Source: an uncultured virus (IMG/VR IMGVR_UViG_3300025009_000077) (Duplodnaviria; Heunggongvirae; Uroviricota; Caudoviricetes). From it: 20,000 bases of DNA. Positions 1-19,727 of the stretch are shown here, piece after piece. Under the pieces are notes generated by a model, which was not told where the DNA came from, ran no database searches, and was given only the letters and a program-made list of their open reading frames with translations. The DNA is taken from positions 56,604 through 76,603 of the IMG/VR virus record IMGVR_UViG_3300025009_000077, one strand, 5' to 3'. The translations under genes were made by a program, and so were the position numbers. Within the stretch, counting starts at the first letter, position 1. The number at the start of each line of letters is the position of its first letter.

Positions 1-2181
1 CCTACTCAAGATAAGATTCTTAAAAAATTAATTAAAGCTAATGAAAGTATCGAGGGATTTTCTCCAGATGATGATAGTGTCATAGACTATCCTAATATAT
101 TTTTAGAATCCTTAATGGAAGCTAAGTCCCTCGATAAGGACTATCTTGAAATAATTAAAGAGAAGATAGAAGAAGCTACTTGTATCTATCCTCTTGATTT
201 AGAAGAACATTTCCCAGAGTCATTAAAAATTCTTAAAGAGAATTTTTATACTCTTGAACCTTCTATGAAAAAAATTAAAATCAAGAAGTATAAAGAAAGT
301 GAAAAGAATTTAAATCCTAAAAATTGTTTAGATATAATTTATGATGCTTTACGTAAATCAAAATTAACCTTATGTCATAATGCCACATTTGATATGTCAA
401 TGCTTAAGAAGGAAGGTTATGATACTTCAAAGATAAATATTTTTGATACTATGGTATTGACCTATAATTCAGATACAAATGCTAAAGGTATGATGGGATT
501 AAAACCAGCAACGGAACATTTCTTGGGAAGACGTGCTACTAAATTTAAAGAAGTATTAGGTACCAACAAGACATTAAAAGACGTAGACCCTTCTGCTTGT
601 GCTTTTTATGCTTCTTGTGATACTGGAAATACTTTTGGGCTATTTCAAGTTCTCTATCCAACTTTGAAAAGGGAAGGTTGCGAAAAAATATTATCCTTAG
701 ATAATAAGCTTGTTAAGGCATTTGCTGATTACTATGTAGAGAATCCTTTGTACATAGATAAGCTTGTTATGAACGAGTACAAAGATACTATATTAAAGAG
801 AATAGAAGAACTAGAGATGAGTATCTTCCAAACAGTAGGATACCCTTTTAACATACGTTCTAGGACTAAAGAGCTACCAGCAGCCTTAATGTCCTTGGGA
901 ATAGATACGGGAGTCAGAACAGAGACTGGTTGTATGAGTACTGCTAAGGATGCTTTATTGCAAGTATCTGGTCAGCATCCTATAGTCAAAGAGTTGATAG
1001 AGCTTAGTTCTTTGGAGAAACAATTAAATTCTTATATAGATAAACTATCTAAGTGTGATTCGCTTCCAGATAACCCTAACATAGGAATATGCAGGATTAA
1101 CTATAAATTATTCGACACTGCTTCTGGAAGGTTAGCTTCTGGAACGGGGGGTAAGTCTAAAGCCGAGGACAATGATTATTTCATAAATTTAAATATACAG
1201 AATTTAACTAAGCCTAAACCAGCTATATACGAAGCTATCAAGTTGGATAATGACTACCAAGGCATTCTTGGGTATGAGTTTAAATTAATCGGTAAGCCAG
1301 ATGATGTTAAGGAATATGTATCTCAGAATCCTAATAAGTATTTTGTAGAGGGATTAAGCCCAGACCTTAATGTAAGAAAAGCTATACGGGTTAAGAACGA
1401 TGATGAGTTAATCCTATCAGTGGATTATTCAGCACAAGAACTTAAGTTAGCTGGTGTTATTAGCGGGGAACCTAACTTCGTAGAACCTTTTAAAGAAGGT
1501 AGGGACGTTCATACTGAAATGGCTAAGAAATTATTCGGAGAAGAGAATTACGATAAAGAAAAAAGAAAAGCAGCTAAGGTAGCTAACTTTGGTTTATTAT
1601 ACGGAGGAAGTCCTCCAGTCTTGAAAGCGGTAGCTGAACAGATGGGAGTTATGATGTCTGAAGAGGAATCTCAAGAGCTGTATAATAAATGGTGGAATGC
1701 TAACATAACTCTTAAAGTTTGGAAAGACCTAGAGTTGAATAAGGCAGAGAAGGAAACTAACTTTACAGTAACCGATATGTTCGGAAGACCTCGGAGAGTT
1801 AAACACTACTTAACTTCCGATGATAGAGGAACTTATAACTTTGGAGTTAGGACAATAGCTTCTCATAAAATTCAAGGTTCTGGAAGTTCTATTATGAGGC
1901 AATTGTTAGTGAACTTAGCTAATAAGATATTTCTTAATCCTAAGTACTCTAGTGAGGTAGCTTATGTCTCATCCGTACATGATGAATGTAATTATAGAAT
2001 AAACAAAAGAAGATTTACTCAGTGGGCTAAAGTAATAGAAGATTTGATGGTATTCAATCCTCCTAACTTCCCAATACCTATAGATTGTTCTATAGAGGTG
2101 GGAGACAGTCTTGGACACCTATTTGCTTTCAAATGGGAAGACGACAGCAGAGTAAGACTGATTCCTAAACGCTGTAATTAA
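1..2181 (+). CDS. polA: Family A DNA polymerase with 3'-5' exonuclease domain (5'-partial)
   Basis: Frame is open from base 1 (PTQDKILKK...) and ATG115 has no RBS, so the start is probably upstream. Motifs: ExoII HNATFD, ExoIII YASCD, TASGRLAS, motif A DYSAQELK, motif B RKAAKVANFGLLYG, motif C VHDE. Confidence 0.95.
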   Translation, partial: PTQDKILKKLIKANESIEGFSPDDDSVIDYPNIFLESLMEAKSLDKDYLEIIKEKIEEATCIYPLDLEEHFPESLKILKENFYTLEPSMKKIKIKKYKESEKNLNPKNCLDIIYDALRKSKLTLCHNATFDMSMLKKEGYDTSKINIFDTMVLTYNSDTNAKGMMGLKPATEHFLGRRATKFKEVLGTNKTLKDVDPSACAFYASCDTGNTFGLFQVLYPTLKREGCEKILSLDNKLVKAFADYYVENPLYIDKLVMNEYKDTILKRIEELEMSIFQTVGYPFNIRSRTKELPAALMSLGIDTGVRTETGCMSTAKDALLQVSGQHPIVKELIELSSLEKQLNSYIDKLSKCDSLPDNPNIGICRINYKLFDTASGRLASGTGGKSKAEDNDYFINLNIQNLTKPKPAIYEAIKLDNDYQGILGYEFKLIGKPDDVKEYVSQNPNKYFVEGLSPDLNVRKAIRVKNDDELILSVDYSAQELKLAGVISGEPNFVEPFKEGRDVHTEMAKKLFGEENYDKEKRKAAKVANFGLLYGGSPPVLKAVAEQMGVMMSEEESQELYNKWWNANITLKVWKDLELNKAEKETNFTVTDMFGRPRRVKHYLTSDDRGTYNFGVRTIASHKIQGSGSSIMRQLLVNLANKIFLNPKYSSEVAYVSSVHDECNYRINKRRFTQWAKVIEDLMVFNPPNFPIPIDCSIEVGDSLGHLFAFKWEDDSRVRLIPKRCN

Positions 2182-9021: not shown

Positions 9022-9670
9022 TTGTATTGTTTGTGGTAAGAATTATTATGTTAGACCCAGTAGCATTGATTCTAAAACATGCTCTCGTAAATGCTACAAT
9101 GAATTTAATTTGAAGAGGAGACTTGAAGTATTAGGAGAGTACATTCTTTGTGATAACGGTTTGTACAAAAAATATCATATCAATAAAAAAGGAGATATAG
9201 GATACAACTATTTTTATAAATCTTCTTGCATTTTTTGTGGTAAGGAATGTTTTAGAGTTCACATATTAGGAAAAAGAGAAATTGCTACAGTATGTAGCAA
9301 AGAATGCAAAAAAGAACTAATGAGGGGAAAGCAAGTAAAGGGTCTTAAATATAAAACCTCTGGAAGTATTCTTCAGTATTCTCCTAATCATATTAATAAT
9401 AGAAAAGGTTATGTGGCACAACACCGTCTTGTGATAGAAGAAGATTTAGGAAGAATCCTGAGTATGGAGGAGGTAGTTCATCATATTAATATGGACAATA
9501 GTGATAATGAGCTAGATAACTTGTACCTGTGTAGAAATGCTTCTTGTCATAACAAAGCCCATGCCTCTTTAAATTATTGTGTGAAGGATTTAATAAATAG
9601 AGGATGTCTAAAATTTAACAAAGAAGAGGGAATCTATATATTAGGAGATAATATATGGAAGAAGAGTTAA
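9005..9670 (+). CDS. HNH homing endonuclease with N-terminal Cys/Zn motifs
   Basis: YVAQHRLV...VVHHINMDNSDNELDNL...CHNKAH; two CxxC...CSxxC modules. The start may be TTG9011, which is better spaced from the AAGGAG RBS. Confidence 0.85.
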   Translation: MELWNSCIVCGKNYYVRPSSIDSKTCSRKCYNEFNLKRRLEVLGEYILCDNGLYKKYHINKKGDIGYNYFYKSSCIFCGKECFRVHILGKREIATVCSKECKKELMRGKQVKGLKYKTSGSILQYSPNHINNRKGYVAQHRLVIEEDLGRILSMEEVVHHINMDNSDNELDNLYLCRNASCHNKAHASLNYCVKDLINRGCLKFNKEEGIYILGDNIWKKS

Positions 9671-10206
9671 TAAGAATAATAGAGTTTGATAACTTTGATA
9701 TCCGATTAGTTAGATGTTCCGCAGAAGGTTGTAAGGATATCATAATGGTTTGGGCTTACAACAAAGATGGTAAGTACATAGATGATGCTGTAGAGTTAGC
9801 TATCAAGATGGATAGGTACTCTATAGACTCAGAGTTCCAAACATCTAAGCCAGAGAATAAAGTTTGTAGTGTAGGATTCTCTACTAAAGAACAGAAGTGG
9901 TATGGGTGGAGTCATAGAGCTATCTTTGGATTTGGAATAGGTTCTACTTGTAAGAAAGGAGATGCTCACTATATTCCAGATAACTTTGAAGATTATAGGT
10001 ATGGAAGTGTCTGGGGAGCTTGCTCTGATTTAGTAGAAGATTACGGAATAGATGATGGGACAAGTAGATTACTTTGTAGGGATACCCGAATAGAATGTAA
10101 TGAAGATAGTTGTCCTCATTATACAAAAGGAAGAGGAGAATGGGTAGCATCTACCCTAGAGGATGCCAAACGTATGGCACGAGATTTTGCGACAAGTGTA
10201 TCATAA
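9655..10206 (+). CDS. Hypothetical phage protein
   Basis: AGGAG RBS; aromatic-rich block GFSTKEQKWYGWSHRAIFGFGIG; no function recognised. Confidence 0.65.
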   Translation: MEEELIRIIEFDNFDIRLVRCSAEGCKDIIMVWAYNKDGKYIDDAVELAIKMDRYSIDSEFQTSKPENKVCSVGFSTKEQKWYGWSHRAIFGFGIGSTCKKGDAHYIPDNFEDYRYGSVWGACSDLVEDYGIDDGTSRLLCRDTRIECNEDSCPHYTKGRGEWVASTLEDAKRMARDFATSVS

Positions 10207-14840: not shown

Positions 14841-14869
14841 TTGACATTTATATCGATAGATGATATAAT
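14841..14869 (+). promoter_or_regulatory. sigma70/sigmaA promoter
   Basis: TTGACA (14841-14846), 17 nt, TATAAT (14864-14869), extended -10 TG. Confidence 0.9.
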
Positions 14870-14898: not shown

Positions 14899-15231
14899 AT
14901 GATAAAAGAAACAGTTCTATGTTTAGATGATGAATATGAATACTACTATGCTATTGAACTTTGTGAGGAGTTGAATATCAGCTTTGAAGTGTTAAGATGG
15001 CATAGTAGAACATCGGTTCATGTTACCAGAAAAGAACCCAGTAACCTAGAGAACTTTAAGATGGAAACAATCTTTTCAGCAGATGAATCGAAGTTGGGTT
15101 TCTTCATGCACCTTTTAACAATAAGAATAGATAAAGTAAATCTATTCAATAAATGTTTAGAACTAATCAAAGAAACGGATTATGATAAAGAGATAGATGA
15201 CTTTTATGAAATGATTTATAAAGAACATTAA
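14899..15231 (+). CDS. Hypothetical protein (acidic)
   Basis: 110-aa ORF after the promoter, AAGGGA RBS. Confidence 0.65.
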   Translation: MIKETVLCLDDEYEYYYAIELCEELNISFEVLRWHSRTSVHVTRKEPSNLENFKMETIFSADESKLGFFMHLLTIRIDKVNLFNKCLELIKETDYDKEIDDFYEMIYKEH

Positions 15232-15264
15232 GTTTTAAGATATCTTGTTAAGTGGGAGAGACGA

Positions 15265-15537
15265 ATGGTTTTAAATCCTGAAGAAATCCTAGAAGAAATT
15301 AAAGTGGGTAAATCATACCTGCTGGATGAAGATGTTAATCTGTTAGGGGAGATAGATTACGAGGAGCACCTGTTTTATATCCCCAAGAGGAATATCTTTT
15401 GTAGGCATCAGATAGACTGGCTCTGTTATTTTAAATCCAATTGGAAGAAGGCTAATTCATTTGAAGAGATAGATGAAGAAGAAGCGTTGATTCTTATTAG
15501 ACTAAAATTGGAGCAGGATGAAGATGATAAACCGTAA
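15265..15537 (+). CDS. Hypothetical protein (acidic)
   Basis: 90-aa ORF, GGGAG RBS. Confidence 0.65.
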   Translation: MVLNPEEILEEIKVGKSYLLDEDVNLLGEIDYEEHLFYIPKRNIFCRHQIDWLCYFKSNWKKANSFEEIDEEEALILIRLKLEQDEDDKP

Positions 15538-15835
15538 GGATTTGAGAGCCTTGAGACGAGGAGAGATACCCCATATAATATTACCAGATGGGTATATGTT
15601 AAAGTTAGATGATTACAATAAGATATTTATCAGTAGGGGAGGAAAGAAACATTATTATTTAACTGATGCTTTCCTTGATGTATTATGTAATAAGAAACCA
15701 ATAAACAATAATATGCTATTGTTCTTAAACATAATTAAGAACATAGAAGGCATAGCTAAAAGATTAAAGAAAGAATCTCTGACAAGAATTAAGTTAGAGA
15801 AATTAATAGAGGAGATTAAAACTAAGTATGAATAA
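15518..15835 (+). CDS. Hypothetical protein (basic)
   Basis: 105-aa ORF overlapping both neighbours; GGAG upstream. Confidence 0.6.
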   Translation: MKMINRKDLRALRRGEIPHIILPDGYMLKLDDYNKIFISRGGKKHYYLTDAFLDVLCNKKPINNNMLLFLNIIKNIEGIAKRLKKESLTRIKLEKLIEEIKTKYE

Positions 15836-16031
15836 GTTAAAGAATTTTTTATTAAAGCTTAAGACATTCATATTATTATGTATGCCTTTATGTTTTTATA
15901 TATGGTTATTAAGAAAAGTTAGTACAGATAGATTACAAGATTACGCTGGTATCTTAGGGGACAATCCTAAATCTCTGATTGTATATCATGGAGTAGTCAT
16001 GGTAGACTTGGATGAAGGAATGCAGATTTAA
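15828..16031 (+). CDS. Small putative membrane protein
   Basis: GAGGAG RBS; hydrophobic stretch TFILLCMPLCFYIWLL flanked by basic residues. Confidence 0.55.
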   Translation: MNKLKNFLLKLKTFILLCMPLCFYIWLLRKVSTDRLQDYAGILGDNPKSLIVYHGVVMVDLDEGMQI

Positions 16032-16055
16032 TCTATAAATATTAAAGGAGGTTCT

Positions 16056-16298
16056 ATGTACCTAAGTTATGATGAGGGTAATGGAGGTCCCATAGTATTC
16101 TTCGATGATGAAGACAAGTGTAGATTCTGTAAACACTTAGCTAAGTGTCCTTTGATATCCGCACTCCAGTTGGGAGAATATTGTATTCCTATTAGGGAAA
16201 AGATTCCAACTCAGGATTTCTGTGAGTTGTTTGAAGCTAACCCTAGAATTAAAAGTATGCAAAAAAGTTTAGAGAAAAGAAAGAAGTCGAAAGATTAA
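16056..16298 (+). CDS. Small Cys-rich protein
   Basis: AAGGAGGT RBS; C-x2-C-x5-C plus two further Cys; TAATG overlap with the adenosyltransferase gene. Confidence 0.7.
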   Translation: MYLSYDEGNGGPIVFFDDEDKCRFCKHLAKCPLISALQLGEYCIPIREKIPTQDFCELFEANPRIKSMQKSLEKRKKSKD

Positions 16299-16993
16299 TG
16301 ATAAATAAATCAGGTTTGATACAAGTGTACACTGGGAGTGGTAAAGGAAAGACTACAAGTGCATTTGGTTTAGTGATGAGAGCTATGGGTCAGGACTGGA
16401 ATGTTTTGATAACTCAATTCATGAAGGGGGACTCCTCAGTGGATAGGGTTTACGGAGAACTTAAATCTTGCAGGATGTTTAAGAATAATATAACTATTAT
16501 ACAATCTCACGATACTGTTCCCTATAAAGTAATACTGGAACATAATAAAGATGAAGAGGATAAAGTACTTGTAAGAGAGGCTTGGCTCTCTATGGTAGAT
16601 GATATAAACACTGGTAAGACTAAGAAGAATATAATAGCACAAGACCACATAGAAGAATACTTTGAACCTTACAACATGTTAGTGTTGGATGAGATACTAG
16701 GAGCTCTAAACCTATCATTGATATCTCAGAAAACTTTCTTTGAGTTCATAAGAACTATGAAGGAGGAAAGACCAGACCTAGAAATAGTTCTAACTGGGAG
16801 GATGTGGTCTGAACCACTGTATGATAAAGTTAAAGATATAGCAGACCTTATGACGGACTTACGTTGTGTTAAGCACTATTTCGAGAAGACATGTTCTACT
16901 TGTAAGAGAAGTTTTGAGTTCAGGTCTAATTACTGTCCCAATTGCGGAGCTGTTTTGAATACTGTGCCTATTAGAAAAGGAATTGACATATAA
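16298..16993 (+). CDS. btuR: ATP:cob(I)alamin adenosyltransferase (CobA/BtuR/CobO family) with inserted zinc ribbon
   Basis: GLIQVYTGSGKGKTTSAFG, QFMKG, YGE, LVLDEI, IVLTGR, IADL, VKHYF...RKGID. Confidence 0.9.
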   Translation: MINKSGLIQVYTGSGKGKTTSAFGLVMRAMGQDWNVLITQFMKGDSSVDRVYGELKSCRMFKNNITIIQSHDTVPYKVILEHNKDEEDKVLVREAWLSMVDDINTGKTKKNIIAQDHIEEYFEPYNMLVLDEILGALNLSLISQKTFFEFIRTMKEERPDLEIVLTGRMWSEPLYDKVKDIADLMTDLRCVKHYFEKTCSTCKRSFEFRSNYCPNCGAVLNTVPIRKGIDI

Positions 16994-17012
16994 TAACGCT
17001 TGTATTTATATT
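16983..17012 (+). promoter_or_regulatory. Possible promoter for the GIY-YIG gene
   Basis: TTGACA (16983-16988) inside the last codons of btuR, 18 nt, TATATT (17007-17012). Confidence 0.45.
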
Positions 17013-17045
17013 ATAGATATATAAATACATTGAGGAACAAGTATA

Positions 17046-18101
17046 ATGAAAAAAGCAGGTATCTATAAAATAACTAATAGAGGGAATAATAAAGTATATA
17101 TCGGAAGTTCAGTAAATTTAGATAATCGTAAGAGACAGCATTTTTACTTACTCTCTAAAAATAACCATACTAATAGATATTTACAATATGCGTATAATTT
17201 ACATGGGGGAGAAAACTTCAAATGGGAAATTATAGAGTATGTAGAAAAGTTAGAGAGCTTGGAAGAAGTTAAAAAGAAACTGTTAGAAAGAGAACAGCAT
17301 TGGTTAGATTTATTTTTTGGAGAAGATTGTTATAATTTCAATCCTACAGCAGGAAGTAATCTGGGAATAAAATTATCTAAGGAAACTAGAATAAGAATCG
17401 GCAGAGCAAACAGTATAGCTTTGAGGGGAAGGAAGCTTCCACAAGATGTTATAGAAAAGATTAGATTAGGAAACCTAGGAAAGAAGATGTCTCCTGAATC
17501 TATAGAGAAAACTAGACAAGCTAATTTGGGTAAAATACTATCGGAAGAAACTAAAGAAAAATTAAGACAAGCTAATTTGGGTAAAATACTATCGGAAGAA
17601 ACTAAGAAGAAAATGAGTGAGAAGTTAAAAGGGAATACTCATACCTTGGGACATGTATTGTCTGAAGAACATAAAAGGAAAATAGGGGAGAAGAGTAAGA
17701 GAAATAAATATGCTCTGGGTAATAAGTTATCTGAGGAACATAAAGAAAAGATAAGACAAGCTAACTTAGGAAATACTCATACACTTGGTAGAAAGTTATC
17801 TGAGGAGCATAAAGAAAAGATTAGATTAGGAAACCTAGGAAAGAAGATGTCTCCTGAATCTATAGAGAAAACTAGACAAGCTAACATAGGAAAGAAGCTC
17901 TCAGAGGAGCACAAAAGGAAAATAGGGGAGAAGAGTAAGGGAAGAACTTCCAAGAAGGTTATTAACTTAGATACTAATGTTGTTTTTAATAATATTACGG
18001 AAGCATCTCTTTTCTATAATTTAGATATCACAAGCATAGTTAAAGTATGTAAAGGGAAAAGGAAAACATGTGGGGGTTTTAGATGGAGTTATTTGGACTG
18101 A
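17046..18101 (+). CDS. GIY-YIG homing endonuclease with NUMOD3 repeats and C-terminal NUMOD1-like HTH
   Basis: GIYKITN...VYIGSS...R, REQHWLD, YN; many LSEE(T/H)K.KI repeats; terminal ITSIVKVCKGKRKTCGGFRWSY. Confidence 0.92.
   Translation: MKKAGIYKITNRGNNKVYIGSSVNLDNRKRQHFYLLSKNNHTNRYLQYAYNLHGGENFKWEIIEYVEKLESLEEVKKKLLEREQHWLDLFFGEDCYNFNPTAGSNLGIKLSKETRIRIGRANSIALRGRKLPQDVIEKIRLGNLGKKMSPESIEKTRQANLGKILSEETKEKLRQANLGKILSEETKKKMSEKLKGNTHTLGHVLSEEHKRKIGEKSKRNKYALGNKLSEEHKEKIRQANLGNTHTLGRKLSEEHKEKIRLGNLGKKMSPESIEKTRQANIGKKLSEEHKRKIGEKSKGRTSKKVINLDTNVVFNNITEASLFYNLDITSIVKVCKGKRKTCGGFRWSYLD
17453..17884 (+). repeat. Exact intragenic direct repeats in the NUMOD3 array
   Basis: 72-bp identity 17453-17524 vs 17813-17884; 41-bp identity 17514-17554 vs 17565-17605. 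Confidence 0.9.
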
Positions 18102-18116
18102 TAAAAGGGGAATTAT

Positions 18117-18314
18117 ATGTCTAAAGATAAATATGAATTAGAATTAAAAAGATTATATAAACTAGCTTCAAAGTTATCGGGAAGATATAAATTGTTATTT
18201 AAAGATACTTCTAGGTTTACTGTGGGACTGTTAGATACAGTAGTATATGAAGAAGGTCTTGATACATGTGGTAAGATAGACACTATGATTGAAGATACAG
18301 ATATTTTCAACTAG
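18117..18314 (+). CDS. Hypothetical protein
   Basis: 65-aa ORF with AAGGGG RBS. Confidence 0.55.
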   Translation: MSKDKYELELKRLYKLASKLSGRYKLLFKDTSRFTVGLLDTVVYEEGLDTCGKIDTMIEDTDIFN

Positions 18315-18318
18315 ACTA

Positions 18319-18347
18319 TTGACATTCATCTTAACTTGTGATAAAAT
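18319..18347 (+). promoter_or_regulatory. sigma70/sigmaA promoter
   Basis: TTGACA (18319-18324), 17 nt, TAAAAT (18342-18347), extended -10 TG. Confidence 0.8.
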
Positions 18348-18402
18348 AATATTAGTATGTAAAAATAGTATTTAATATAAACATATATAAAAAGGAGATT
18401 AC

Positions 18403-19089
18403 ATGAGCGACTTTCTAAATATAGAAGGCACTCTGAGAAGCATATTTTCATTAGGTAAGTCTAGTAACAAGGTAACTATTCAAAGTAATAGTGGAACCTT
18501 GGAAGGGAAAAACTTTGGAGGAGTTTTTTCTAAGATACTTCTTGGAGGTAATAATCTCAATGATGTATCCAATAAAAATACTTCTTTGAACAATTTACTA
18601 CCATCTCAAACTGGGAACACTTCTAAGATTCTTACAACGGACGGAACTGATACAAGTTGGTCTAGTATAGATTCTCTTCCAGCATCTAAAGTACTTGTAA
18701 AGAATACGTCTACCCAAGCTATTCAAGGAGGAGTATACACTAAAGTATTATTTCCAACTGAAGTAACGGATACTTTATCTGAATTTTCAAGCAGTACTTT
18801 CACTAGCTTATCCACCCAAACGGTATTAGTATCTGCTTCCTTTTCTGGAACTGGTTTTGGTAATGATAGATTGTTGTATCTTTACATTTATAAGAATGGC
18901 AGTACTTATATACACGCTTTAGAAAATAGCGGAGGAGGAGCTACTGGAGGATTAGTATGTGTTAATATATCTTTTCCGATAGATGTTGTTGCAAATGATA
19001 CTTTAGAAATTTATGCTAGACATACTGATGGCAGTAACAATAGAAACTTGGATGGAAATCAAATACTTAGTATTATTAAATTAAGGTAG
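18403..19089 (+). CDS. Putative virion fibre/decoration protein with C-terminal C1q/TNF-like beta domain
   Basis: S/T/G/N-rich; fibre-type motifs NNLNDVSN...LNNL and LPSQTGNTSKILTTDGTDTSW; C-terminal TKVLF..E..D...F...TFT...IYKNG...DTLEIY. Confidence 0.6.
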   Translation: MSDFLNIEGTLRSIFSLGKSSNKVTIQSNSGTLEGKNFGGVFSKILLGGNNLNDVSNKNTSLNNLLPSQTGNTSKILTTDGTDTSWSSIDSLPASKVLVKNTSTQAIQGGVYTKVLFPTEVTDTLSEFSSSTFTSLSTQTVLVSASFSGTGFGNDRLLYLYIYKNGSTYIHALENSGGGATGGLVCVNISFPIDVVANDTLEIYARHTDGSNNRNLDGNQILSIIKLR

Positions 19090-19100
19090 GAAATATATTA

Positions 19101-19727
19101 ATGAGTTTTAATTATAGAGAAGCAGTAGATGCTTATGTTGGCAGGGAGGTAGATTATAATTCAGAAGTTATAATCTGTCAAGATTGGGATGGAGACTCAG
19201 ACCCAGATGGATTTTGTATAGAGGAATGGAATATAGTTTCTCCCACTAAGCCTACCTACCAACAGTTACTTGACCTATGGAATACTCTCGACCATACCCT
19301 GTGGTCTAATTATCCAGACTCTTATGTTTATGCTACAGGAACTTCTCAGAGTATTCAATCAAGGGTATTCACTTCTGTCAATTTTACTGAAGTAGAAGAT
19401 AAAGATGTAGAGTTTGTAACTAATACTTTTACTTCTAAGAAGGTACAATTTGTAGCTGTGAACTTTGTGGGAACTTTAAATAATGTTTCTAGTAATTATA
19501 AGTTTGAAGTAACGGTAAGAAAGAATGGTGCCATAATAGATTTTGATACTAATGTCTCTATGGCGGGGTTACTCTCTACGGAAGATTTATTAACCTCCTG
19601 TAATGTTATAACCAGATTAACTAAGGGAGATACTCTTGCAGTGGAAGTTTATAACAGTAGTCTTAGCACTCTGAGCTTAACAGATTATAGATTAGAGATA
19701 TTAACTGTGGAAGGGAGAGGCTTATAA
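19101..19727 (+). CDS. XkdW-like N-terminal domain fused to C1q-like domain
   Basis: IEEWNIVSPTKPTYQQL; C-terminal TSVNF.EVED...F..NTFTS...VRKNG...GDTLAVEVY, paralogous to the previous ORF. Confidence 0.55.
   Translation: MSFNYREAVDAYVGREVDYNSEVIICQDWDGDSDPDGFCIEEWNIVSPTKPTYQQLLDLWNTLDHTLWSNYPDSYVYATGTSQSIQSRVFTSVNFTEVEDKDVEFVTNTFTSKKVQFVAVNFVGTLNNVSSNYKFEVTVRKNGAIIDFDTNVSMAGLLSTEDLLTSCNVITRLTKGDTLAVEVYNSSLSTLSLTDYRLEILTVEGRGL

Follow-up and report, generated by a model that had tools for sequence, protein, structure and literature searches.

A CobA-type corrinoid adenosyltransferase homologue with a cysteine ribbon inserted in its C-terminal tail, from a clade found so far only in phages

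Introduction

Microbes trade in vitamin B12, which is scarce, and the adenosylated form of the vitamin is indispensable to class II ribonucleotide reductase (RNR). What, then, does a phage do with a gene of the B12-adenosylating family, and what is the purpose of four cysteines that interrupt the last conserved motif of the encoded protein? Both questions are raised by a stretch of 20,000 nucleotides from an uncultured caudoviricete (IMG/VR record IMGVR_UViG_3300025009_000077, positions 56,604 to 76,603), which we refer to as the window. One of its genes, here called cobA-Zn, was read in a first-pass annotation of the bare letters as a phage-encoded cobalamin adenosyltransferase that supports B12-dependent dNTP synthesis. 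In the following, we examine the family, the insertions, the distribution and the genomic neighbours of this gene. We lean towards the view that cobA-Zn is a working CobA-type adenosyltransferase from a phage-restricted, ribbon-bearing clade, that it serves a class II RNR and that its ribbon is a structural zinc module; the other readings that we weigh appear unlikely to different degrees.

Results

cobA-Zn has the family motifs and the predicted fold of CobA

The gene is phage-borne, and its assignment to the CobA/BtuR family is well supported: the match of the protein to PF02572 reaches 132.2 bits against a cut-off of 25.7, with residues 5-200 covering positions 2-165 of the 172 in the profile. 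The protein scores below the cut-offs of the NCBIfam cobA equivalog TIGR00708 (85.6 vs 167.75 bits) and of the subfamily NF004637 (103.1 vs 185 bits). Judged by these scores, cobA-Zn lies inside the CobA/CobO/BtuR family and outside the group that NCBI names by TIGR00708. A profile made from one of our alignments (A1) matches Salmonella enterica CobA with an E value of 4e-29, and a PHROGs search gave no family below E 0.01, with matches only over the ribbon.

In the AF2 model (pLDDT 88), cobA-Zn adopts the CobA fold, a P-loop alpha/beta domain with six strands, and its C-terminal tail is where this fold has it. Foldseek with this model returns 1g64, 1g5r and 4hut at the top (E 4e-10, target-normalised TM 0.71-0.84), and VIA-align pairs model residues 1..231 with residues 24..195 of 4hut_A at Z 20.6 and an rmsd of 2.8 over 172 residues. 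Unrelated folds come next in VIA-align, at Z no higher than 13.8, the order being CobA, then KaiC, FlaH and RecA-like proteins. Thymidine kinase cores align to the model at Z 11.7-12.7 over residues 5..191. We rejected the thymidine-kinase resemblance seen with Foldseek, as it concerns the P-loop core only, the kinase zinc domain falls outside the aligned range in most matches, and no thymidine kinase family scored.

All CobA/BtuR motifs had been listed as present, and this is borne out in the window protein by an alignment of 109 rows, 37 with the ribbon and 72 without it. The family-invariant set GxGKGK(T/S)(T/S), R28, QF.K, DE, TGR, KH and R.G.(E/D) is complete in the window protein; its residues are kept in about 36-37 of the 37 ribbon rows and in 66-72 of the 72 ribbon-less rows, K192 being lower in the ribbon rows (29/37 vs 69/72). 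Every ribbon row keeps G13, K18, G24, R28, F41, K43, D131, E132, T166-G167-R168 and H193, and G13 and K18 are also found in 72/72 ribbon-less rows. In the tail, position 226 is R or K in 36/37 ribbon rows, G228 is present in 36/37 and position 230 is E or D in 37/37; the final aromatic residue of the family tail is absent in the window protein, which has I231. A homologue, P0273, carries an intein that splits the P-loop between GKGK and TT.

Two elements known from S. enterica CobA are changed. First, F91 and W93 of that enzyme align to V78 and L80 in the window protein, and position 78, the counterpart of F91, is aromatic in 2/37 ribbon rows vs 43/72 ribbon-less rows. The aromatic pair F91/W93 of the S. 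enterica enzyme reportedly forms four-coordinate cob(II)alamin, a result attributed to Moore et al. in 2012. Second, the N-terminal helix, which caps the neighbouring active site in S. enterica CobA, is missing: only four residues precede strand 1 in the window protein, and its alignment to 4hut_A starts at chain residue 24. This helix is also missing in most cellular homologues of about 177 aa. The family, fold and insertion topology of cobA-Zn are established, and we infer that the protein has the enzyme activity of the family.

A ribbon of four cysteines lies between KH and the C-terminal tail

The motif CSTC-x10-CPNC occupies exactly the positions first given for it (16892-16945), flanked by KH on one side and by the R-x-G-I-(D/E) tail on the other (Table 1). 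In alignment A1, 19/19 rows of the 201-234-aa group have CxxC...CPxC between KH(Y/P)F.K and R.GIE, whereas 9/9 cellular rows (about 177 aa) are contiguous and run from KH.F.. directly to G(V/I)..R.GIE(Y/W/R); the claim that the cellular tail is contiguous holds in each of these nine rows. The ribbon columns are gapped in 72/72 ribbon-less rows of the larger alignment.

The cysteines are strongly conserved. All four are invariant in 21/21 close sequences (alignment A2), and the 36 sequences of the wider alignment A4 show no exception at C199, C202 or C213 and retain C216 in at least 90% of cases. Across the 37 ribbon rows, the counts for C199, C202, C213 and C216 are 37/37, 37/37, 37/37 and 36/37, and Asp replaces the fourth cysteine in the clade members P0130 and P0270. 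The two knuckles are 10 residues apart in the window protein and 10-14 apart across clade members. Other ribbon positions are conserved as well: residues 206 (35/37 rows), 208 (F, Y or W in 33/37) and 212 (30/37) are aromatic, and L220 is found in 36/37. The model places short strands at 196-199, 205-207 and 219-222, and the match to Zn_ribbon_3 (PF13248) reaches 22.7 bits, under the cut-off of 27. Zinc would be the bound metal in our reading, and we treat the insert as a putative zinc ribbon. No paper on a ribbon-bearing CobA was found in the limited set of literature examined.

Table 1. Positions of cobA-Zn, its parts and its neighbours in the window
Feature	Position	Strand	Remarks
cobA-Zn	16298..16993	+	231 aa, stop included in the coordinates; CobA/CobO/BtuR-family ATP:corrinoid adenosyltransferase homologue
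P-loop GSGKGKTT, residues 13-20	16334..16357	+	aligns to GNGKGKTT of S. enterica CobA
Mid insert, residues 104-124	16607..16669	+	predicted beta hairpin ahead of the Walker B strand
Walker B D131-E132	16688..16693	+	D in 37/37 ribbon and 71/72 ribbon-less rows; E in 109/109 rows
T166-G167-R168, then clade-specific 4-residue insertion (MWSEPLYDK)	16793..16828	+	TGR in 37/37 ribbon rows
K192-H193, final family motif before the ribbon	16871..16876	+	H193 in 109/109 rows
C4 knuckles C199-x2-C202 ... C213-P-x-C216 (CSTC-x10-CPNC)	16892..16945	+	putative zinc ribbon
Entire ribbon insert, about residues 197-225	16886..16972	+	about 29 residues between KH and the tail
C-terminal family tail R226-K-G-I-D-I231	16973..16990	+	back at the tail position of S. 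enterica CobA
Promoter-like TTGACA-17-TATAAT (12/12, with TG)	14841..14869	+	consensus match only
Five small ORFs in a run	14899..16298	+	promoter-like site upstream; run ends at cobA-Zn
80-aa Cys-rich ORF	16056..16298	+	its stop codon shares one base with the start of cobA-Zn
Insertion with free-standing GIY-YIG/NUMOD3-type homing endonuclease (ORF 17046..18101)	16987..18103	+	absent from G001

The first-pass annotation had also noted a second insert ahead of YNMLVLDE. This insert is real, a predicted hairpin of about 21 residues (104-124) beyond cellular CobA with strands 107-113 and 117-123 in the model, but it varies in length and belongs to the closer clade members only; it is absent from P0014-P0020 and is a gap in 9/9 cellular rows of A1.

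Beyond these two inserts, there is an additional difference, a 4-residue insertion after TGR (MWSEPLYDK vs A.PE----). It occurs throughout the ribbon clade, and position 177 is a gap in 71/72 ribbon-less rows. In the same segment, W170 is found in 21/37 ribbon rows vs A in 63/72 ribbon-less ones.

These features are not due to chance. Purifying selection acts on the ribbon as strongly as on the remainder of the gene. A comparison of the window copy with the 94%-identical copy of the related phage G001 gives pN/pS values (uncorrected proportions, pS 0.63) of 0.07 over the whole gene and 0.08 over residues 196-225; the value over the mid insert is 0.19.

The ribbon form has a single origin and is found so far only in phages

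The ribbon is the mark of one clade, with at least 40 sequences and with 19 members among the 150 best representatives at 50% identity. We built an unrooted tree of the 37 ribbon rows and 72 ribbon-less CobAs without the columns of the ribbon and of the mid insert. In this tree, a single branch with support 96 (0 of 500 shuffles as low) sets all 37 ribbon rows apart, and the split persists at support 97 when the columns of the 4-residue helix insertion are dropped too. The ribbon clade is thus of single origin. A second tree included one of the five CobAs from the phylum of G005 that entered the filter. Phylogeny had been proposed as a check of both phage specificity and donor. The former stands, with the ribbon found on phage or phage-like contigs only. 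An unrooted tree, in which all sampled ribbon-less CobAs lie across from the ribbon clade, names no sister group and hence no donor lineage.

Wherever the surroundings of a ribbon copy could be read, they were those of a phage or phage-like contig, and no cellular context was found. Readable contexts comprise the window with L001/L002, G001, G002/G003, G004, G005:C2, G006-G009 and a truncated copy in G010. An insertion widespread in cellular CobA was not found either: among 185,579 species genomes, the ribbon motifs were matched in one, on a contig syntenic with phage G001. In 401 genomes of the phylum to which this genome belongs, 115 had a match, only the phage contig spanned profile positions 2-203, and no ribbon was seen in any of about 100 ribbon-less CobAs. 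As a lead only, the nearest ESM Atlas cluster (score 0.92, 80 members) is labelled Viruses 100%. Among the matches listed in a metagenome scan with the ribbon motif were the window's own contig and L166, a fragment of 2.1 kb, the others listed being unrelated zinc ribbons; the matches listed in a viral scan with this motif gave a similar picture. The frame is intact and the motifs are invariant in sequences down to 29% identity. The ribbon-bearing form of CobA has so far been found only in phages.

The single cultured-phage match to P0131, MT835487, was set aside, as the genes around its CobA-like ORF look bacterial and this ORF lacks the KH tail.

The gene keeps its position among relatives of the window phage

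With the whole window as query, megablast found no match among cultured phages. Relatives of the window phage include G001, a complete phage of 190 kb, and G002, which is 90% complete, and the position of cobA-Zn is conserved in these two and in G005:C2. The capsid protein of G001 shares no more than 36.5% identity with any cultured phage and therefore gives no hint of the host. In the window, cobA-Zn adjoins a recombination and replication block. The promoter-like site ahead of the upstream run of small ORFs is one of 20 in the whole region vs 18.6 in shuffles, that is, not above shuffles. The 80-aa ORF immediately precedes cobA-Zn in the window as well as in G001 and G002. Its residues C22, C25, C31 and C56 are invariant in 5/5 sequences down to 41% identity; it had no NCBIfam match and just two further homologues among 5.8 billion proteins.

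On the downstream side, blastn matches window positions 16039-16986 and 18104-19195 to G001, where only 17 bp lie between the two segments. The ORF in the intervening insertion scores 116 bits against a cut-off of 56 for TIGR01453, a group I intron endonuclease family. The window protein ends in DI vs EY in G001, since the homology to G001 stops at 16986, at the start of the endonuclease insertion.

A B12-dependent reductase adjoins the gene in a syntenic relative

In the syntenic relative G005:C2, cobA-Zn (54% identical) begins 18 bp after a 1123-aa, intein-bearing RNR, with a dUTPase upstream of the pair. This RNR matches PF17975 and PF21995 and scores 341.1 bits against the cut-off of 340.05 for TIGR02505 (RTPR). 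Other neighbours of ribbon copies are a dNMP kinase, ThyX and a MerR-like ORF, which precede the gene in G004, and a thioredoxin, which follows it in G006. G413, a phage with a ribbon-less cobA, has an RTPR-like ORF of 731 aa about 7.5 kb from that gene. Cyanophage P-SS2 carries a class II RNR together with cobO, the role of which its authors call unclear (PMC2784084). Indeed, all three cobA-bearing phage records with any RNR (G005:C2, G413 and P-SS2) hold the B12-dependent class.

The link to B12-dependent dNTP synthesis that the first-pass annotation had proposed gains direct context from the RTPR 18 bp away in G005:C2; the relatives in which we looked for nrdJ elsewhere in the genome do not bear it out. 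Neither the complete G001 nor the 90%-complete G002 yielded an RNR with PF02867, the G005:C2 RNR protein or TIGR02505 as query; the sole match to these queries in G002 and G003 is an intein. No B12-binding family appeared at E <=1e-4 among the 212 G001 ORFs of at least 100 aa, beside which this genome has 142 shorter ones. Six viral records with a cobA gene have a completeness rating of 90% or more (G001, G002, G008, G009, G411 and G412), and an RNR was found in 0/6 of them. A search of the window and eight related loci (141,044 bases) gave no cobalamin riboswitch. Considering that the window lineage has neither a reductase nor another B12 enzyme, the client would have to be a host enzyme, as we assume.

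Two candidates for CobS/CobT-like cobalt-chelatase parts, the AAA_5 ATPase of G008 and the AAA_3 and DUF2201 pair of G001, were rejected since they had no NCBIfam support.

Discussion

We propose the following. cobA-Zn would convert reduced corrinoid and ATP into adenosylcobalamin. A predicted Cys4 zinc ribbon is inserted in the C-terminal tail of its phage-restricted clade; the chain would loop out after KH and return, so that the R-x-G-I-(D/E) tail is still at its usual place. The adenosylcobalamin most likely feeds or re-arms a class II RNR during phage DNA synthesis, and some relatives would encode this client reductase themselves, while the window phage would use that of its host. For the ribbon itself, a structural zinc module on the enzyme's substrate face is most likely; there it may act as a lid or as a docking surface, and its conserved aromatic residues may replace the aromatic pair of S. 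enterica CobA on the lower corrin face. For the role of the ribbon, we favour a lid or docking surface over redox chemistry.

cobA-Zn has its Pfam family and fold in common with S. enterica CobA (BtuR) and Pseudomonas denitrificans CobO (1G5R, 1G64, 4HUT). It shares GxGKGKTT, QF.KG, DE, TGR, KH and the G-I-(D/E) tail with S. enterica CobA, to which it adds the Cys4 ribbon of about 29 residues, the 21-aa hairpin and the four residues after TGR; it is without the N-terminal 23 or so residues and has V78/L80 for F91/W93. Among phages, the cobO of P-SS2 is a CobA/CobO-family gene in a genome that also has a class II RNR (Sullivan et al. 2009, PMC2784084). This cobO is of a different kind, cyanobacterial in type and 344 aa long, without a ribbon and with a tail that reads HRHYAENGVALKRGIDY; its product is 24% identical to the window protein and is placed among the ribbon-less rows in our tree. 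The same B12 dependency is seen in phages with a class II RNR, such as the Cobavirus group, which take the cofactor from the host and, as their authors argue, need B12-producing hosts (PMC6775973). In contrast, the window phage has the cofactor-activating enzyme but, as far as its relatives G001 and G002 show, no reductase, and the two genes are adjacent only in G005:C2.

Other proteins resemble cobA-Zn in single features. EutT is an adenosyltransferase that needs a protein-bound metal, held by cysteines. It is unrelated to cobA-Zn in family and fold, and the window protein had no match to any EutT or PduO-type family. The likeness to the predicted metal site of cobA-Zn is that EutT is a metal-containing corrinoid adenosyltransferase (title of reference 127 in PMC7242693). 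TK1-type thymidine kinases and DnaI-type loaders also combine a P-loop or RecA-like core with a small Cys4 zinc domain, a likeness of layout only. DnaI is an AAA+ protein with its zinc domain at the N-terminus.

The location of the gene raises the question of whether the ribbon clade is still, or only, a B12 enzyme. It is possible, though we think it unlikely, that the clade is a phage replication factor, for example a loader, in which a RecA-like ATP-binding core on the CobA fold works with DnaB, the ribbon binds DnaB or DNA and corrinoid activity is gone. This would explain why the gene stands directly after dnaB in four independent small phages without a recognisable loader or B12-dependent enzyme. 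In a divergent ribbon subclade, the gene is directly downstream of that for DnaB in 4/4 contigs (L191, L192, L193 and L194), in the order SSB, DnaB, cobA-Zn, 5'-3' exonuclease, and Pfam recognises neither a helicase loader nor a polymerase, an RNR or a B12 enzyme among the 53 ORFs of the complete 40.5-kb phage G008. The recombination and replication block beside the window gene, the scores of the clade under the cobA equivalog cut-off and the P-loop intein of a homologue, at a site typical of replication proteins, point in the same direction, and DnaI-type loaders have a P-loop domain joined to a zinc-binding domain. However, every CobA-specific motif beyond the P-loop is kept on both sides of the ribbon, namely QF.K, G53-E54 (YGE in the window), TGR, KH and R.G.(E/D), which would be unexpected if the ATPase had been turned to other work. 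Ribbon-less phage CobAs with high scores (170-215 bits; L200 and L206) also lie in replication modules; this means that the location is a habit of phage cobA genes and not of the ribbon form. Furthermore, the neighbour in G005:C2 is the RTPR and not DnaB, dnaB of G001 is about 16 kb away, and the fold is CobA-like rather than AAA+, with 14.8 bits against a cut-off of 200 for the IstB helper model.

The adjacency to dnaB is in itself equally compatible with a role in replication and with a role in nucleotide supply.

Even if the adenosyltransferase works as we propose, its product may serve some other adenosylcobalamin process of the host, or may act as a signal, for example by shutting off host genes of B12 uptake and synthesis through a riboswitch; btuB is under riboswitch control by adenosylcobalamin. 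This possibility, which we also hold to be improbable, shares the family and motif evidence with the class II RNR reading, and most cobA-bearing phage records are without any RNR, as in each of the six rated at least 90% complete. Nevertheless, class II reductases are the only B12-dependent genes seen with phage cobA (G005:C2, G413 and P-SS2), the neighbours belong to nucleotide metabolism or replication rather than to catabolism, and the phage loci searched contain no cobalamin riboswitch.

As for the ribbon, the first-pass annotation had suggested that a Zn/rubredoxin-like knuckle delivers electrons. In such a scheme, the four cysteines would bind iron in a rubredoxin-like centre that supplies the electron for Co(II) to Co(I) reduction, independent of host flavodoxin. 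The second knuckle does read CPxCG, as in rubredoxin, and the 4-residue insertion of the clade falls where S. enterica CobA has R165, a residue reported to be important for flavodoxin docking in that enzyme. The rubredoxin motif is CxxCG ... CPxCG with knuckles about 29 residues apart and iron bound; in the ribbon clade, the first knuckle is CxxC(K/G/N) (CSTCK in the window) and the knuckles are far closer together (10 residues in the window). Rubredoxin potentials are also far too positive for the Co(II)/Co(I) couple, and a one-electron centre would need a reductase of its own as well. EutT sets a precedent for a metal-containing corrinoid adenosyltransferase (title of reference 127 in PMC7242693). 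No rubredoxin family matched the ribbon at E <=1, a level at which several zinc-ribbon families did, and the members with Asp for the fourth cysteine also speak against the scheme. We therefore regard electron delivery by the ribbon as quite improbable and return to the structural zinc module as the favoured role.

That cobA-Zn is a decaying passenger without function in the phage is the least credible reading and was already disfavoured: the complete G001 has no client enzyme, the endonuclease insertion altered the last two codons in the window and the relative L201 is truncated at 163 aa, but pN/pS is 0.07 at pS 0.63 between two lineages, the frame and motifs hold down to 29% identity, and the position is conserved in G001, G002 and G005:C2.

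A phage-only lineage of a B12-activating enzyme is found in phages whose sizes range from about 40 kb to 190 kb, and most of these have no reductase of their own. If the ribbon clade were a replication factor after all, a cofactor enzyme would have been recruited into the replisome. The inserted ribbon provides a natural experiment on the closure of the CobA active site and on its electron source. If cobA-Zn is the adenosyltransferase that we propose, phages would tune the activation of a host cofactor, beyond the reductase itself, to secure DNA precursors, and the gene would be a cheap lever of 0.7 kb that has barely registered in current lists of auxiliary metabolic genes.

The ribbon-bearing protein

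Judged by sequence, the cobA-Zn gene of the window encodes a structural variant, specific to phages, of an enzyme already known: a CobA/CobO/BtuR-family protein with an inserted Cys4 zinc ribbon. The first-pass annotation had noticed this ribbon, and the observation is confirmed, down to the exact coordinates. The window is a low-GC (33%) tailed-phage stretch with nearly all ORFs on one strand; named through orthologues in G001, its complete 190-kb relative, its genes include family A DNA polymerase, exonucleases, ATP-dependent ligase, and RecA-like and SbcCD-like proteins. The cobA-Zn product matches Pfam CobA_CobO_BtuR over residues 5-200 (132.2 bits, cut-off 25.7), and several zinc-ribbon models match residues 190-222 slightly under cut-off (best Zn_ribbon_3, 22.7 against 27). 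The NCBIfam cobA equivalog (85.6 against 167.75) and subfamily (103.1 against 185) models are both matched far under cut-off, and no PHROGs family was found for the protein.

By sequence, S. enterica CobA is the sole relative with solved structures, and the family profile reaches these at E 4e-29. CobA is also the best Foldseek match of the AlphaFold2 model (pLDDT 88, pTM 0.81). In a second structural alignment, model residues 1..231 lie on residues 24..195 of 4hut_A (Z 20.6, rmsd 2.8, 172 residues), and unrelated RecA-like folds come next at Z 13.8 or less. Because both chains stay aligned to their final residues, the ribbon is a true loop-out in the model, with the tail returning to the CobA tail position. 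In the alignment of ribbon-bearing proteins, the residues that define the family are conserved before and after the insert, which argues for the ancestral CobA chemistry.

Three additions set the protein apart from cellular CobAs (see table). Between the window gene and its 94%-identical G001 copy, pS is 0.63, near saturation, and pN/pS is 0.07; the ratio is 0.08 in the ribbon and 0.19 in the hairpin, thus the ribbon is as constrained as the catalytic core. The window protein ends in GIDI, versus GIE(Y/F) in G001 and most of the clade, because the junction of a downstream insertion falls within the last cobA codons. In one homologue, P0273 (77% identical, on a 3,124-bp contig), the P-loop of the ribbon-bearing CobA is interrupted between GKGK and TT by an intein that includes a LAGLIDADG-type endonuclease; the following Thr would act as splice nucleophile. 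The early stop in the G010 copy is probably a frameshift or assembly error.

Features of the cobA-Zn protein, of the window and of related records
Feature	Location	Character	Context
Hairpin insert	residues 104-124, ~21 residues	before Walker B strand	variable length; absent in part of ribbon clade
Four-residue insert	directly after TGR motif		alignment against cellular CobAs
Ribbon	~residues 197-225	C199, C202, C213, C216	alignment against cellular CobAs
cobA-Zn	window 16298..16993 (+)	231 aa
Small ORF	window 16056..16298	80 aa; four invariant Cys (CxxCx5C...C); no family match; just 2 other homologues among 5.8 billion proteins	one-base overlap with cobA-Zn start; same place in G001, G002
Insertion	window 16987..18103	free-standing GIY-YIG/NUMOD3 homing endonuclease (ORF 17046..18101; TIGR01453, 116 bits)	right behind cobA-Zn; absent from G001
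ORF	window 9655..10206	183 aa	position matching G001's Tad6-family gene
Tad6-family Thoeris inhibitor	L013:15563..16111 (G001)	137 bits	just ahead of RecA-like gene
tRNA genes	L011:10060..11527, L009:12471..12547 (G001)	block of 15 plus tRNA-Trp	ARAGORN tmRNA-like call overlaps block
Intein	L016:5265..8186 (G001)
MerR-type ORF	L006:9366..9845 (G004)	159 aa; too short for B12-binding domain of CarH-like regulator	directly upstream of cobA-Zn
Phage RTPR and family A polymerase	L025:4096..7467 and G005:C2 46-50 kb	RTPR with intein and LAGLIDADG segments; polymerase matching G001's in three pieces
TnpB-like ORF	L025:64..1398	OrfB_IS605 and Cas12f1-like TNB domain	phage-like contig; RAGATH-18 RNA match (64.7 bits) at 3' end (1286..1357)
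tRNA-Trp	L183:13374..13447		just downstream of cobA-Zn in G005:C2
Shortened cobA	L201:8001..8492 (G010)	TGRIWSRSL signature; stops early at 163 aa	ribbon clade; tblastn match continues past

Distribution and origin

Wherever the surroundings could be read, the ribbon-bearing gene lies on a contig of viral or phage-like character. The close group, on viral records, comprises the window's own contigs (L001, L002), G001 (190,151 bp, terminal repeats, rated complete), G002/G003 (61% identical protein) and G004 (38% identical); the divergent group comprises G006-G009 and the shortened copy in G010. A scan of 185,579 prokaryote species, one genome each, found the ribbon motif at one locus only, on an 83-kb contig (G005:C2) of a genome labelled Candidatus Saccharibacteria. 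The GC content of this contig is 30%, 98 of its 103 ORFs share a strand, and the order of its SbcCD-like, RecA-like, ligase, polymerase, helicase, baseplate and sheath genes is that of G001. The contig is a piece of a related phage that either resides in the Saccharibacteria-labelled genome or was binned along with it. In the contexts read, the insert is phage-specific; the first-pass annotation had weighed this against its being widespread in cellular CobA.

In the phylum of G005, 115 of 401 genomes have matches to the clade profile, and only that of the phage contig covers positions 2-203; the cellular CobAs end at ~168-173, at the KH motif. A few short hits over positions 144-200 were rejected as unrelated ribbons. 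Ribbon-less CobA occurs in about a quarter of the ~1-Mb genomes of this phylum (~100 of the matches are strong), whose organisms are not expected to synthesize B12. The closest ESM Atlas cluster, of 80 members and with a score of 0.92, carries the label 100% viral, which is a lead only. The ribbon form was not found in the cultured phages of the collection searched, where cyanophage P-SS2 alone has any CobA-family gene. Phage cobO is already in print, the P-SS2 description including both cobO and a class II RNR (PMC2784084); a literature search of limited scope found no published account of the ribbon-bearing form. One record filed as 'Bacteriophage sp.' (L189, MT835487.1) has a CobA-like ORF surrounded by TypA/BipA-, DapA-, DapB- and AsnA-like genes, named from translations read by eye, and the stretch looks bacterial.

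A word-indexed search returned 1095 homologues, of which the best 20 (201-234 aa, 38-94% identical) are all ribbon-bearing and those from rank 21 onward are ~177 aa and ribbon-less. When 1.84 billion representatives were searched exhaustively by profile, 6616 CobA-family proteins emerged; among the best 150 of these, 19 match through the ribbon, all 19 with the Cys pattern, the fourth Cys being Asp in two. We built an unrooted FastTree tree, with ribbon and hairpin columns removed beforehand, from 37 ribbon and 72 ribbon-less rows (70 random picks of 160-205 aa from two homologue searches, the L007 phage CobA and the P-SS2 CobO C-terminal domain); five ribbon proteins that were near-duplicates or fragments were left out. 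A single branch divides the ribbon rows from all the others (SH-like support 96; 0/500 label shuffles as low), and the grouping is unchanged when the four-residue insert columns are dropped as well (support 97). The ribbon form thus had a single origin; since the tree is unrooted, the donor lineage cannot be named.

The phage group is rich in selfish elements, as indicated by the intein segments of the G005:C2 reductase, a family A polymerase on that contig that matches G001's in three separated pieces, and inteins in G001 and G002 (L102). G001 also encodes Mom-family, RtcB, two RNA ligases, PTH2, patatin and AdoMet decarboxylase proteins.

Replication modules

It is possible, at low probability, that cobA-Zn is a loader-like replication factor working with DnaB. 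On all four contigs of the divergent subclade (L191-L194; small phages, ~38-40 kb where complete) it directly follows dnaB, in the order SSB, DnaB, cobA-Zn, 5'-3' exonuclease and dATP/dGTP diphosphohydrolase-like protein (PF18909). No recognisable helicase loader was found in the complete G008, in which no polymerase was seen either, and the pairing of P-loop core and zinc module beside dnaB recalls DnaI-type loaders. However, beyond the P-loop none of the CobA-specific motifs has been lost, phage CobAs of the canonical, high-scoring, ribbon-less kind likewise sit in replication modules (L200, L206), and such modules are the usual home of reductase genes and their helpers.

Role of the ribbon

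The following is inference. The insert exits just past the KH-ending strand and rejoins the tail, and solved CobA complexes hold ATP and corrinoid at this end of the sheet. The N-terminal segment of Salmonella CobA, which caps the neighbouring active site, is missing from the phage proteins; the F91-equivalent position is aromatic in 2 of 37 ribbon rows versus 43 of 72 ribbon-less rows, and ribbon positions 206, 208 and 212 are aromatic and nearly invariant. A role as lid or wedge would fit this reciprocal loss and gain, and we regard it as a lead; aromatics also simply pack small ribbons. Ribbon net charge is not conserved (positive for the window protein, close to neutral across the divergent subclade), which argues against general nucleic-acid binding. 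As for the electron-delivery role that had been suggested, the CPxCG knuckle is the one point that speaks for a redox centre.

The client enzyme

The strongest functional clue is the gene order on G005:C2, where cobA-Zn begins 18 bp downstream of the gene for an intein-bearing reductase of 1123 aa, with a dUTPase just upstream. Both the RNR alpha domain and the B12-dependent RNR insertion domain are recognised in this reductase, which scores at the cut-off of the NCBIfam adenosylcobalamin-dependent RTPR equivalog (341.1 against 340.05). In G004, dNMP kinase, ThyX and a MerR-like ORF precede cobA-Zn; in G006 (L191), thioredoxin follows it. G413, a phage with ribbon-less cobA, has an RTPR-like ORF ~7.5 kb off. 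With P-SS2, all three cobA-bearing phage records that have a reductase thus have the B12-dependent class.

Most cobA phages have no reductase. PF02867 matched nothing in G001-G004, G006-G010 and G411-G415; since this model barely detects RTPR-type enzymes (just 20-28 bits on that of G005:C2), searches were repeated with the G005:C2 protein on G001-G004, giving intein hits only, and with TIGR02505 on all fourteen records, where G413 was the sole positive. None of the six cobA phage records rated at least 90% complete has a reductase. An nrdJ elsewhere in the genome, which the first-pass annotation had proposed to look for, was found by none of these three queries in the complete relative G001. 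Pfam scans of 212 of the 354 called G001 ORFs (those of at least 100 aa) and of 53 G008 ORFs showed no B12-binding family, and no cobalamin riboswitch was found in the window or 8 related loci.

By these results, the client for the window phage would have to be a host enzyme. The cellular part of G005 encodes a class II reductase of the NrdJ type (696 bits, cut-off 400), and no CobA-type or PduO-type adenosyltransferase was found in this possibly incomplete genome beyond that of the phage contig; this is a weak pointer to a host, as co-binning is poor host evidence. The proposed support of B12-dependent dNTP synthesis is thus partly supported: in the relative, the gene order beside RTPR shows a link to B12-dependent ribonucleotide reduction, and for the window phage we infer such a link.
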